Origin: an uncultured Planctomycetaceae bacterium
GTDB taxonomy: Bacteria > Planctomycetota > Planctomycetia > Planctomycetales > Planctomycetaceae
Assembly: GCA_963815195.1 (NCBI GenBank)
Contig: CAWFGE010000018.1
Span: forward strand, 192,001 to 256,000
Length of the DNA: 64,000 bases
Reading direction: 5' to 3'
Shown here: positions 40,962 through 44,853 of the stretch, piece by piece
How the letters are laid out: each line of letters begins with the position of its first letter
Numbering within the stretch: position 1 is the stretch's first letter
Notes under the pieces: generated by a model
The model's database searches: none
Told to the model about the DNA's origin: nothing
Seen by the model: the letters and a program-made list of their open reading frames with translations, nothing else
Translations under genes and position numbers: made by a program

Positions 40962-42387
40962 TTACGCTTGCGGTTCGGTCATCTTGTACGGATCGAGCGC
41001 ATCGTTCAGCACATCTTCGGGAAGAATCTTCTGCTCCTGGCAAAGTTCACGGATGGTCTTGCCGGTCTTGAAGGCTTCTTTCGCGAGCGCTGCGGCTTTT
41101 TCGTAGCCAATGTGCGGATTCAAACTCGTCACCATCGACAGACTTTGCTCCACCGCGGCTTCGCAGGCTTCTTCGTTGGCCTCGATCGACTTGGCACAGA
41201 GATCGACGAAAGCATCGGTCGCTTTGGATAGCAGCATCACGCTTTCCAAGACCGTCTGAGCCATCATGGGCATCATGATGTTGAGCTGGAAATTCCCGCC
41301 CGCCGCCCCCGCGACGGCGATCGCCTGGTCGTTGCCCATCACGCGGGCGCAAACCTGCAGCATGCTTTCGCAAAGCACCGGGTTGACCTTGCCCGGCATG
41401 ATCGAGACTGCCGGGCTGCAGATCCGGAATCTTAATTTCATAAAACCCGCACCTGGGCCCCGAACCCAACCAGCGGATGTTGTTCGCCACGTTGAACAAG
41501 GTCGAAGCAATCGCCTTGAGATCGCCGTGACATTCCACGAGCCCATCGCGCTGGGCGTTGGCTTCGAAATGGTTCTTGGCTTCCACAAACCCGATGCCGG
41601 TTTCCTGGGCGAGCACCTTCGCGACCCGGCCGCCGAATTCGGGATGCGTGTTGATCCCCGACCCCACCGCGGTCCCGCCCACGGGCAGTTCCAAGACGGC
41701 ATCCCGCGCCCGCTCGGCCCGCTGGACCGAAAGCTCGATCTGCCGGGCAAACCCGCCGAACTCCTGGCCGAGCCTAAGCGGCGTGGCATCGGCGAGATGC
41801 GTGCGGCCGATCTTGATGATCTTATCCCAAGCCGTCGCCTTCTCGCGGAGCGTTTGCTCGAAGGACTTGAGAGCCGGGATGAGCTTCTTTGTAATCTCTT
41901 GGGCGACCGCGACGTGGATCGCGGTGGGAAAGGTGTCGTTCGTGCTTTGCCCCATGTTGACGTGGTCGTTGGGATGCACGGGCTTGGTCGCGGCGAAGCG
42001 GTCGCCTCCCAAAAGTTCGATCGCCCGGTTGGAAATGACTTCGTTCACGTTCATGTTGCTCGACGTGCCCGAGCCGGTCTGGAACACATCGATCGGAAAC
42101 TGATCGTCCCAGTCCCCCGCGGCCACCTCCCGGCAGGCTTTGAGCATGGCTTCGACCTGTCCGTCACTGAGCGGATTTTTCCCGCTGCCGGTGAGCTTGC
42201 CCAGATCGCGGTTCGCCGTCCCGCAGGCGAACTTGACGAGCCCCATCGCATGAATCAGCGCGGGCGGCAACGTCATCCCGGAGATGGGAAAATTCTCGAC
42301 GGCCCGCTGCGTCTGCGAAGCATAATACGCCTGAGCCGGCACCTGCACTTCACCCATCGAATCCCGTTCCGTGCGAAACTCACTCAT
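40962..42387 (-). CDS. fumC: Class II fumarate hydratase, frameshift near 41408
   Basis: RTERDSMG, QTGSGTSSNMN, HPNDHVN..QSTND, KIGRTHLADA, (GS)SIMPGKVNP. Confidence 0.95.
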
Positions 42388-42519
42388 TGCAATATCCTTA
42401 AGATTTAACCACGAAACACACGAAAAAAGGCAGAGAAAAGATTCCCAGCATAGCCATCCGGCTCAGACGAATCCTGGATCAGGGGAAGAAGAGATGATTA
42501 CAACCGTCATGGTCCTATT

Positions 42520-42903
42520 TTATTTCTTGGGAGATGCAAATATTCTTAATTGAGATTGAAGGGCATCAATAATAGTTTTGTCTGAGGTGGGACTTATGGA
42601 TTCTGCATTTTCGAATACGTCAGGATCAAGAACAATCGCGTCTCTCAATTGGCACCCCGACAGCCTTTTGTATTCTAGATTTGCCAGATTAACGTCATCT
42701 TGTCTGACCCCGAACTCCCATCGCGGGTTACTCCACTCGTCACCGATAACCAAGCGTTCAAATTGCATATCCCCACAAATAAAATCCTCAGTGAAGTCCC
42801 AGTGGAGACAGCTTACGATCAGAACGGATCGATGAAGGTACAAAAACCGATTGCCGGGGTAACTTTCGATCATGCTTTTGACTCGGCGAATGATTTCGTT
42901 CAC
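42520..42903 (-). CDS. Orphan hypothetical protein
   Basis: 127-aa ORF, AT-rich, no recognisable motif. Confidence 0.5.
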   Translation of the reverse strand: MNEIIRRVKSMIESYPGNRFLYLHRSVLIVSCLHWDFTEDFICGDMQFERLVIGDEWSNPRWEFGVRQDDVNLANLEYKRLSGCQLRDAIVLDPDVFENAESISPTSDKTIIDALQSQLRIFASPKK

Positions 42904-42974
42904 AATTGTTTCCGCATCCCTGGGTCAACCGGTCAAGCTTTTCGTGTGTTTGGTGTGTTTCGTGGTTCTAAAAT

Positions 42975-43352
42975 TCAACGGACGATGCGTTCGGATTCGA
43001 CCTTTGGGTAATGGCCGAAATTGACGAGCAACCCTAGTCTGTATCCCGTGCTTTTCAAATAGTTGTGGACTTGAGCGCGGTGTTCTTCGGCAAGTTGTTT
43101 CAGTGCTTTGATTTCAAGAATGACCTTTTCGAAGCAGATAAAGTCGGGAACATATTTCTGCTCCAGTACTCGGCCTTTGTATTTGAGATCAAGAGGTTGC
43201 TGAGCTCGAATGGGGATTCCTCTGCTCGCGAATTCCATTTGCAGACACTCTTGATAAACGGCTTCCAGAAATCCGCAACCCATTTCCGTATACACCTCAA
43301 AACAAGCCCCCATAATCTGGTAGCTCTCATTTTTTAGTGCAACCTCCGCCAT
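42975..43352 (-). CDS. GxxExxY protein (PD-(D/E)XK nuclease superfamily)
   Basis: MGCGFLEAVYQECL, YVPDFIC..ILEIKA, QVHNYLK..GLLVNFG. Confidence 0.93.
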   Translation of the reverse strand: MAEVALKNESYQIMGACFEVYTEMGCGFLEAVYQECLQMEFASRGIPIRAQQPLDLKYKGRVLEQKYVPDFICFEKVILEIKALKQLAEEHRAQVHNYLKSTGYRLGLLVNFGHYPKVESERIVR

Positions 43353-43487
43353 TGATCTTCCCCCGACGAACAAGTAGGAACCCCCCCAATACCAGAAAGA
43401 TCAATATACGGTGAAACGTCCTGTTTTGAAGTGCGTTTTCTTATCCTTTTCGTGTATTTCGTGTGTTTCGTGGTCCCTTCCGTCGTC

Positions 43488-44351
43488 TCAATAAAGCGCC
43501 GTGGCCAGTTTGCGGCGGTAGGTGCTCACGATGGCGGAGCTTTGGCCGATGAGGTCGAAGATTTTCAGCATGGTCTCTTTCGCCTCCTGGCCGGCACCTT
43601 CGCGGTCGGCTTGGATGACTTCCAGGCACAGGTCCAAGGCTTCCTCGAACTTGCGGGACACCGCGAGCGCATCGGCGAGTTTGATTTTGAGCGCGAGGTC
43701 GCCGGGGTTCGCTTGAACGGCGGCCCGGGCTTCTTCGACGCCTCCGGTTTCCGCGGCGGCCGCGCGGAGATCGAGTTGGGACTTGAGCTGCTCGGCTTCA
43801 TCCTCCAGGTAGCCTCGGGTTTCCAGTTCGCTAATGATTTGCCGAGCTTCCTCATCCCGGCTTTGCGCGAGAAGCACCCGCGCGAGGCGAATGCGAATCG
43901 CATCGTTCGCGGGATCCGTCTGCGCGGCTTCGCGGTAACACTGCTCGGCGGACACGGGATCGCTGACTTCGAGTTCCTCGCCCCGGCGGAGGAGTTCCTC
44001 CTCGGCAGAAGGCATCAAGGCCTTCACCCATTCCCGAAGTTGCGGCTCCGGCAGCATGCCTTGAAACTGATCCACGGCCCGGCCTTCGTAAACCGCGAAC
44101 ACCGTCGGGATCGATTGCACCCCAAACGCGGCGGCGAGTTCCTGCTCCTCGTCGATGTTGACCTTCGCCAAAACAAGTTTTCCGCCGGCTTCGTTCACCA
44201 GCTTTTCCAGCACCGGACCCAACACCTGGCAGGGCTGGCACCAGGGGGCCCAGAAGTCGATCAGCACGGGGCATTTCATCGAGCGGTCCACGACCTCTTC
44301 TTGAAACGTGGCGGCCGTGGCGTTGATGATCCATGCAGAAGACTCGGGCAT
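43488..44351 (-). CDS. Thioredoxin-TPR chaperedoxin (YbbN/CnoX)
   Basis: PVLIDFWAPWCQPC, FGVQSIPTV, TPR region, YRRKLATALY. Confidence 0.9.
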   Translation of the reverse strand: MPESSAWIINATAATFQEEVVDRSMKCPVLIDFWAPWCQPCQVLGPVLEKLVNEAGGKLVLAKVNIDEEQELAAAFGVQSIPTVFAVYEGRAVDQFQGMLPEPQLREWVKALMPSAEEELLRRGEELEVSDPVSAEQCYREAAQTDPANDAIRIRLARVLLAQSRDEEARQIISELETRGYLEDEAEQLKSQLDLRAAAAETGGVEEARAAVQANPGDLALKIKLADALAVSRKFEEALDLCLEVIQADREGAGQEAKETMLKIFDLIGQSSAIVSTYRRKLATALY

Positions 44352-44451
44352 GACGGGACTTTCGGAGCAAGCGACCGGGGAAGCGGACCTATTTTTTCCC
44401 TCAGTCTAGGAACTCTCCGAAGGGATTGAAACAATCCCGGGCCAGGCGCAT

Positions 44452-44547
44452 AAAAAAAGCGTCCCGAAACCGCACACGTTCCGAGACGCCTTTTTTAAGT
44501 TGAAAATGCTGACAAGTGCGGGCCAACTCCTGTCATCACTTTCCTCC
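44452..44547 (-). ncRNA. Putative sigma54-dependent small RNA, copy 1 (~96 nt)
   Basis: Stem-loop with loop GUUGGCCCGCA, then an intrinsic terminator and U7; paralog ~306 bp upstream. Confidence 0.7.
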
Positions 44548-44725: not shown

Positions 44726-44759
44726 CTCTTTGCCGATTCTCGAACAGGGAATCGGCAAC

Positions 44760-44853
44760 AAAAAAGCGTCCCGAAACCGCACACGTTTCGGAACGCCTTT
44801 GATGCAAGAATCGATGACAAGTGCGGGCCAACCCTTATCATCGCTTCTCACAG
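44760..44853 (-). ncRNA. Putative sigma54-dependent small RNA, copy 2 (~94 nt)
   Basis: 19-bp stem with the same loop, near-identical terminator and U6. Confidence 0.7.

Follow-up and report, generated by a model that had tools for sequence, protein, structure and literature searches.

A short block between two co-oriented housekeeping genes, a thioredoxin-TPR (YbbN-like) gene and fumC, raises the question of whether a small predicted nuclease and the repeats around it act together as a mobile system. The window is the whole stretch of 64,000 nucleotides in which the block lies. The block holds a GxxExxY gene, a 127-aa orphan open reading frame (ORF) and three short repeats, here called arms. 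A reading of the sequence alone had proposed that these form one cassette, in which the nuclease recognises the repeats and mobilises itself with the orphan as cargo, much like the RAYT/REP systems.

Anatomy of the block and its two genes

In the direction of transcription, the order is the stop of the thioredoxin-TPR gene, a left arm, the GxxExxY gene, a second left arm, the 127-aa ORF, the right arm and fumC (Table 1). Each arm consists of two to four tandem 9-mers, with ACCACGAAA-YACACGAAA as the unit type at this locus, and arms in this genome form inward-facing pairs that are mostly intergenic. The three repeats of the sequence-only reading were found where it had placed them, and its offsets of 20 from the fumC start and 14 from the ybbN stop correspond to 19 and 13 intervening bases. 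A repeat search of the window matched the arms at 42407/42967 with 95% complementarity, so that the ORF does lie between inverted repeats, and those at 42408/43474 with 100% complementarity over 18 nt. The search also returned a 29-nt direct repeat of 93% (42938/43446), as expected if direct repeats bounded the GxxExxY gene, but these copies are the two left arms of nested inverted pairs and not a separate kind of boundary. The GC content of the block is 45%, against 59.7% for the genome, and the orphan is AT-rich, as had been said (44% GC).

Table 1. Features of the ybbN-fumC junction (window coordinates).
Feature	Position	Strand	Remarks
Outer left arm, three 9-mer units	43447..43474	-	13 bases past ybbN stop; same place in sister species G001
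GxxExxY / PDDEXK_3 nuclease gene, 125 aa with Met	42975..43352	-	profile matches; mosaic relative to G001 allele, breakpoint near 43150
Inner left arm, three units	42939..42967	-	7 bases past nuclease stop; not in G001
127-aa orphan ORF	42520..42903	-	in loop of inner inverted pair; not in G001
Right arm, two units	42407..42426	+	common to both nested pairs; 19 bases ahead of fumC start; in G001 too
Flank: thioredoxin-TPR protein (YbbN-like)	43488..44351	-	domains from Pfam; name ybbN from the sequence-only reading
Flank: class II fumarate hydratase, fumC	40962..42387	-	probable assembly frameshift near 41407

The frameshift in fumC is probably an assembly error, and the contigs of two of the four runs (X1 and X3) lack the extra base; the ybbN gene of the congener G002 is likewise split. 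Of the 21 joints in the contigs of the four runs, none of the 15 listed skips the block, and no contig spans it; the best of the four may derive from the source sample.

Upstream of the YbbN-like gene, the window contains two copies of an intergenic element of about 90 nt (44448-44541 and 44755-44846), which are 307 bp apart and share blocks of 46 and 32 nt that are 88-89% alike. They could represent a small structured RNA or another repeat family, and one copy has a sub-threshold Rfam match to Pxr (E 0.087, 26.6 bits vs 80). A stand-alone N6/N4 DNA methyltransferase gene (PF01555; 45044-46114), also upstream, is kept in the congeners G001 and G002.

The identity of the GxxExxY protein was borne out by matches to TIGR04256 (143 bits, cut-off 35) and PF13366 (144 bits, cut-off 22), with PDDEXK_3/DUF559 as the only Pfam assignment. 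The name-giving motif reads G26-F-L-E29-A-V-Y32, and the catalytic set is intact (D69, E79-x-K81 and Q93-xxx-Y97, numbered without the Met). In an alignment of 66 sequences, D69, K81 and Q93 are invariant, and E79 and Y97 are at least 90% conserved. The QxxxY motif is a mark of the RecB family. A structure model with a pLDDT of 95 has its best match in the Cas4 protein SSO0001 (Foldseek E 7.6e-5; Z 8.1, rmsd 4.4, 100 residues aligned) and is also close to lambda-type exonucleases. On the strength of motifs and model, the protein belongs to the PD-(D/E)XK superfamily with a Cas4/RecB fold and is a predicted nuclease. A PDB search with a profile built from the nuclease alignment returned nothing (best E 0.7), a search of the ESM Atlas gave no usable match, and PHROGs and PADLOC gave weak matches only (E 0.004 at best in PADLOC). 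The homodimer prediction scored 0.00, which we do not take as evidence. No close homologue was found on viral contigs; eight plasmid records match, all typed as non-mobilizable. The closest named homologues of the protein point to a planctomycete host. The family is widespread, with GxxExxY genes in 143 of 300 sampled genomes of the phylum. At one locus in G010 (C85:969-1703), two GxxExxY domains occur within a single 334-aa open frame.

The 127-aa ORF has no Pfam or NCBIfam match, and its family was seen in none of 400 other genomes of the phylum; two metagenome scans yielded no relative, and PADLOC had no match. It is a real protein, because it belongs to a small unnamed family of seven representatives (34-53% identical, six near full length) and is modelled with confidence (pLDDT 91, alignment of nine rows). 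Foldseek with this model gave no match at E<=0.001, the best Z of 4.7 being among small beta-barrels. The orphan does not travel with GxxExxY genes and is most plausibly foreign DNA that became trapped between the arms of the inner pair, where it rides along without being a partner of the nuclease. Nothing shows that it was moved by the nuclease as cargo; it looks like a one-off captured gene.

Arms across the genome and the protein family

The arm repeats are non-random. The 17-mer ACCACGAAWNACACGAA, for which the sequence-only reading had suggested a genome-wide count, has 57 exact copies in the genome and none when the sequence is read backwards. With a looser definition the number rises to 91 arms, grouped in 56 clusters, again with none in the reversed control. 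Inward-facing pairs are contained in 22 of the 24 multi-arm clusters, and the other 32 clusters are single arms, a few of which probably arose by chance. A GxxExxY gene is present in only two of the 56 clusters. Tandem motifs built in the same style number at least nine in the genome, with 3-127 copies each against 0-1 in reversed controls. As for the co-occurrence with GxxExxY paralogues that was also raised in that reading, all five in this genome have arms, of four types, each falling in the matching part of the protein tree.

Arrays of this kind also occur next to an unrelated family. All six hits to TIGR02436, a four-helix-bundle family that is no nuclease, adjoin short tandem-repeat arrays of 7- and 9-mers, clearly on both sides in five of the six as judged by eye. 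Loci with arrays are C13:137035-137844, C23:267263, C12:779945, C7:8460 and C10:281148. The copy on C13 is tandemly duplicated along with its arms; the design is that of the GxxExxY units, with a different protein inside.

Beyond this genome, an arm with at most two mismatches lies within 300 bp of the gene in 68 of the 80 closest homologues on GTDB contigs (the best 80 of 490 confirmed), on both sides in 57, compared to 4 of 59 distal controls. A tight association of repeats with GxxExxY genes, which the sequence-only reading had put forward as a check, is thus supported among these homologues. The commonest layout among these 80 is left arm, gene, right arm (35 cases), and several of the remaining 12 have variant arms by eye among those listed. 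The best 80 of the 490 occupy 53 distinct gene neighbourhoods in several phyla. One neighbourhood is common to 15 of them, mostly in Opitutaceae genomes, i.e., the gene has persisted there vertically for a long time, which speaks against the reading that we favor below. Around relatives of a distant paralogue, the arms are of other types (29 loci). Some homologues that cluster with loci of the Planctomycetota or of Verrucomicrobiota type come from records labelled Klebsiella, Bifidobacterium and Akkermansia; these titles may be binning or naming errors.

In a quick tree of 183 proteins, from which rows with stops or fewer than 90 matched columns were dropped, arm type changes 31 times, compared to a mean of 93.2 after shuffling, and none of 200 shuffles was as low, with the reservation that the permissive arm pattern also fires on 53 of the 183 reversed flanks and that 80 rows were picked for their closeness to the locus protein. 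A single branch (SH-aLRT 97) holds 68 of the 70 rows of GAAW type and 17 of the 19 of GGAA type. By association, arm type follows the protein tree and not the host. Since gene and arms are physically linked, this matching could reflect co-inheritance alone.

Genomes with arms also tend to have the protein. TIGR04256 was matched in 10 of 11 arm-positive and 10 of 29 arm-negative relatives (p=0.003), and a close homologue was present in 7 of 21 arm-positive and 19 of 279 arm-negative genomes among 300 of the phylum (p=0.0008), both being hand counts over kin that are not independent. Any GxxExxY gene was found in 16 of the 21 arm-positive and 127 of the 279 arm-negative genomes. The association is far from strict, with 14 of the 21 arm-positive genomes being without a close homologue. 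In the congener G002 (90% complete), 129 exact arms stand against a single GxxExxY gene, whose clade and arm type are different. No protein of G109 (one contig, 99% complete) reaches the PF13366 cut-off despite 13 arms in that genome, and the three GxxExxY genes of G040, which has 12 arms, are all of other clades.

Turnover at arm-bounded sites

The ybbN-fumC adjacency is kept in two of the 20 relatives fetched, both congeners. In the sister species G001, in which fumC is 96% identical, the junction holds the left arm, the GxxExxY gene and the right arm, without the second arm and without the orphan. In G002 the junction has no gene and instead an element of about 240 bp with arms of another type. 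In G003 (85% complete), ybbN and fumC are on different contigs, with no exact arm and no GxxExxY match. Because the contents differ in G001 and G002, the block is neither vertically fixed nor the single cassette that had been proposed, G001 having the nuclease unit without the orphan. The extra left arm and the orphan lie inside a shared arm-GxxExxY-arm unit and are specific to this genome when compared with G001, through either a gain here or a loss in the sister.

The sequence-only reading had pointed to an empty site at this junction in relatives. None of the 20 has a cleanly empty one, but the contents are polymorphic, and a site that is empty in both congeners was found for a paralogue, C18:98396, which lies within perfect inverted arms of a third type. 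The gap between its flanks measures 634/616 bp here and 43/42 bp, without arms, in G001/G002; the intergenic DNA is too diverged for the exact insertion point to be read. Another paralogue, on C12, has the order arm-gene-arm-spacer-arm here and arm-gene-arm in G001, with no gene in G002. The two flanks of the C2 paralogue are not jointly conserved in the congeners, hence it is uninformative.

Turnover extends to arm loci in general. The comparison with G001 covered 40 loci of the 47 clusters listed, of which 25 were matched to this genome and 15 were not matched on both flanks. Among the matched loci, 3 are colinear, 11 share arms with differing interiors and 11 (10 distinct, one with a decayed arm) are armless here. 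One arm element of G001 occurs on C12 and C17 with its flanks on both contigs, which is either a duplication or assembly redundancy. For G002, 9 of 18 loci examined could be resolved, and at all nine the arm type of the ybbN-fumC locus is missing from this genome.

Arm pairs may enclose genes unrelated to the nuclease. In this genome, one pair encloses a 207-aa ORF with no Pfam match (C13:110750-111555) and another a DUF1963 gene (C6:154931-155793), both pairs being gene-less in G001, where one arm pair in turn holds two ORFs without Pfam match. In G134 an IS110-family transposase gene lies between a facing arm pair (L350:6724-8273). The gene-less elements of G002 are often nested, with arms of the locus type outside, another arm type inside and REP-like palindromes in the center, and their interiors are mostly unlike each other. 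Several of these nested elements (L374-L403) sit inside a further CTCAAACTGTAA...TTACAGTTTGAG inverted pair, which is seen in this genome too.

The nuclease gene itself shows signs of exchange. Compared with the G001 allele, 60 of the 201 bases at the 5' end differ and 16 of the last 171 (p=0.0005 by max-chi with codon permutation). Because the excess of differences sits in the 5' portion, one of the two alleles is a recombinant. The alleles differ with a dN of 0.077 and a dS of 1.82, and the dN/dS of about 0.04 indicates purifying selection. The flanking genes have a dS of 0.36 and 0.51; the background genes are mostly of high GC3, which may inflate the contrast in dS but does not account for the breakpoint within the gene. 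Likewise, the positional orthologues of another copy (C12/C23) share 69% amino acid identity, where 112 orthologue pairs have a median of 87%; the value is also below the 74-76% between non-positional copies. Taken together, the mosaic allele and this low identity argue that nuclease genes are partly replaced while staying at their sites.

Known systems and candidate mechanisms

The kind of system is known, namely an enzyme plus its cognate repeats, as in the REPIN-RAYT logic. As in the available text on REPIN-RAYT (bioRxiv 10.1101/2021.07.10.451892), a gene is flanked by cognate repeats and accompanied by many gene-less paired copies in intergenic regions; paired repeats cognate to the flanks of the gene itself are present here in the 22 clusters, out of 56, with an inward-facing pair. 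The same text describes repeats that can outlast the gene, REPINs decaying once the RAYT is lost. It also describes the RAYT as an HUH/tyrosine enzyme that is single-copy, vertically inherited and not self-moving, whereas the GxxExxY protein has a PD-(D/E)XK fold, is present in five copies in this genome and occupies those 53 neighbourhoods among the best 80 of 490 homologues. Furthermore, REPINs are self-contained hairpins and the arms are tandem 9-mer arrays. The arm-GxxExxY system is real and non-random and it works like REPIN-RAYT, but it is not a member, there being no HUH plus catalytic-tyrosine (Y1) transposase and the gene being multi-copy at many sites, with one site kept in 15 of the 80 homologues.

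Homing endonucleases of the PD-(D/E)XK or free-standing kind, such as I-Ssp6803I and I-Bth0305I, are reportedly encoded by small nuclease-fold genes. The likeness is that a small nuclease gene could spread by a break and gene conversion without target duplication, and mosaic alleles at fixed sites fit such a process. Here, unlike in homing endonucleases, there is no intron or intein host and no single conserved target gene, the genes being intergenic in many neighbourhoods, and the gene lies between copies of its own putative target, a multicopy repeat. The fold match of I-Bth0305I to the nuclease model is only weak (Foldseek E 0.056). The best fold matches are Cas4/RecB-like nucleases (SSO0001, PDB 4ic1; Pcal_0546, PDB 4r5q), which share the D-ExK-QxxxY motif set. 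The protein is nonetheless no CRISPR Cas4, having 125 aa against about 200 and one conserved Cys only in the 66 sequences instead of a conserved four-cysteine Fe-S set, and lying between the YbbN-like gene and fumC with no cas1 or CRISPR array at the locus.

Insertion sequences and MITEs were also considered. Terminal inverted repeats are present in the arm units, but in 137 elements tested at six offsets, direct repeats of 4-9 bp in the flanks were no commoner than in shuffles, and so gave no sign of target-site duplication, which old insertions could have lost. No transposase was recognised in the nuclease unit by a Pfam/NCBIfam scan and, with a view to integron cassette arrays, no integrase among the flanking genes scanned.

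The PDDEXK_3 family (PF13366, TIGR04256), of which the locus protein is a member, is listed as of unknown function with "multiple transfers, mixed clades" in the accessible part of PMC3424549, which does not mention flanking repeats. In the text available from another study (bioRxiv 10.1101/2021.01.26.428298), a GxxExxY domain appears once, beside a reverse transcriptase, and another tool called it cas4. Multicopy sequences are described as clustering within the same intergenic regions in the portion of PMC2996986 that we consulted. We found no paper that links GxxExxY/PF13366 to flanking repeats in a literature search in which subscription papers were mostly uncovered, and the supplements of PMC2996986 and PMC3543383 may list related arms. 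The association apparently has not been described as a system, and it fails the membership of the named systems tested. What this locus adds is a stepwise build, cargo exchange at fixed arm pairs, a match of clade and arm type within one genome, a mosaic allele, and counter-examples.

We tentatively favor, as a reading that comes close to being probable, a two-part selfish repeat system in which cleavage by a Cas4/RecB-fold nuclease takes place at the arms cognate to it, and subsequent repair multiplies the units or replaces their contents. The DNA part would be the arm of tandem 9-mers in inward-facing pairs, and the protein part the stand-alone 125-aa nuclease of the matching clade. The nuclease would bind its cognate arms and nick or cut either the arms themselves or the DNA between them. 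Recombination or end repair by the host could then copy arm pairs to new places, carry the nuclease gene into arm-bounded sites, swap parts of the gene between alleles and refill the loop with other DNA, the orphan being a passenger taken in this way. The earlier suggestion that the nuclease mobilises itself and cargo gains from the polymorphic sites and from the arm pairs whose unrelated ORFs are missing in G001. It loses from the lack of target-site duplication and of transposase chemistry, from the rarity of GxxExxY genes in arm clusters, and from arm-rich genomes without the cognate nuclease. The same genomes (G002, G109 and G040) count against the reading favored here, as do the similar arrays around the TIGR02436 genes. 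Furthermore, a PD-(D/E)XK enzyme has no strand-transfer step, so that the rise of new sites is not accounted for.

A bolder version, which we regard as possible but somewhat doubtful, is that GxxExxY genes and arms constitute an undescribed bacterial mobile system without a transposase. A minimal Cas4-like nuclease would read clade-specific tandem 9-mer arrays and introduce breaks between paired arms. Each genome would thereby come to hold dozens to hundreds of nested intergenic "landing pads", at which small foreign genes such as this orphan are taken up, exchanged and lost and the nuclease genes themselves recombine, with several nuclease-arm specificities coexisting per genome. If such a break-and-refill mechanism were proven, it would be a new class. 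If the nuclease drives the turnover, operons would have a way to acquire small genes with neither a transposase nor an integrase at work. In any case, the arms give a common family without an assigned function a candidate DNA substrate, together with a built-in control of specificity in the form of paralogues with different arm types in one genome.

Alternatively, the arm pairs could be MITE-like or REPIN-like elements spread by an unlinked agent, either a host process or a transposase, with the GxxExxY, four-helix-bundle and orphan genes all being passengers. The arm-rich genomes without a cognate nuclease, the presence of the gene in only two of 56 clusters, the four-helix-bundle genes flanked by similar arrays, and the abundance of arm-style tandem motifs in this genome are all in line with this explanation. 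Yet a passenger need not keep its catalytic residues, a dN/dS of about 0.04 or one arm type per clade across phyla. The lack of target duplication in 137 elements, and interiors in G002 that are mostly dissimilar, unlike those of a MITE family, point the same way, and we consider an unlinked agent unlikely.

Another possibility is that the arms act on RNA. A stem in the operon transcript would hide or excise the insert, as in ORF-bearing 23S rRNA intervening sequences, so that insertions are harmless and the protein is either an RNA-processing enzyme or a neutral passenger. The closeness of the arms to the neighbouring genes, 13 bases from the ybbN stop and 19 from the fumC start, would suit this, as would the predicted RNA fold of the whole block, in which the terminal arms pair over 15-16 bases. 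Across the 137 elements, arm complementarity continues for about 3 bases outside the core, with covariation between the two arms, and in 49 arm pairs (of 80 loci) the variable positions agree between arms in 28, compared to 16.8 after shuffling. The mismatches in these pairs tell another story. The core is nearly invariant, position 10 is mismatched in 21 of the 49, and there is no bias toward G-U on the sense strand (10 G-U-compatible vs 19 A-C mismatches, p=0.14). With these three features, the pattern fits DNA sites read by a protein better than it fits an RNA stem. No Rfam family was matched in the block at the gathering score, the single sub-threshold match lying outside it, and many arms are unpaired, with 32 of 56 clusters being single. 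We therefore give the RNA explanation only a small chance.

Sites read by a protein could also belong to a global DNA-bending or regulatory protein, with GxxExxY being a DNA-binding regulator and no mobility factor. The closest precedent is from 2009, when classes 1 and 2 of "predicted global regulator binding sites" were reported in Geobacter metallireducens and read as IHF/HU sites (PMC2700814, in the available text, as for the statements on it that follow). The 21 paired sites listed there lie on opposite strands and carry three tandem repeats, and IHF/HU binding was suggested for them. The two have in common that arrays of three tandem 8-9-mers lie between genes and are paired on opposite strands, with a spacing that varies. 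The reverse complement of class 2 (ACACGGAG units) is the arm type found beside G-clade GxxExxY genes, and IS110 adjoins class 1 sites, as IS110 lies between arms in G134. The 9-base period and a fixed core with one free position also fit protein binding. On the other hand, the unit sequence is unlike that of this locus, and the text of PMC2700814 links no nuclease gene, mobility or cargo to the sites; "GxxExxY" had 0 matches in the 12 supplements searched. The proposal was itself a prediction, and the correspondence was stated to be unknown. Moreover, the sites turn over between congeners and have their interiors replaced, the flanking genes have no common function, and the catalytic residues of GxxExxY are conserved. 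A regulatory role thus seems even less probable to us than one in RNA. If the nuclease drives the turnover, this would also account for the Geobacter multicopy paired repeats that were left in 2009 as putative regulator sites.

Finally, the tandem arrangement of two small co-oriented genes, the nuclease first, could suggest a toxin-antitoxin, defence or nuclease-immunity pair, which we dismiss as highly improbable given that PADLOC offers at best the E of 0.004 for the nuclease and no match for the orphan, that the orphan family is absent from 400 genomes of the phylum against 143 of 300 with GxxExxY, and that G001 has the nuclease at this very site without the orphan.
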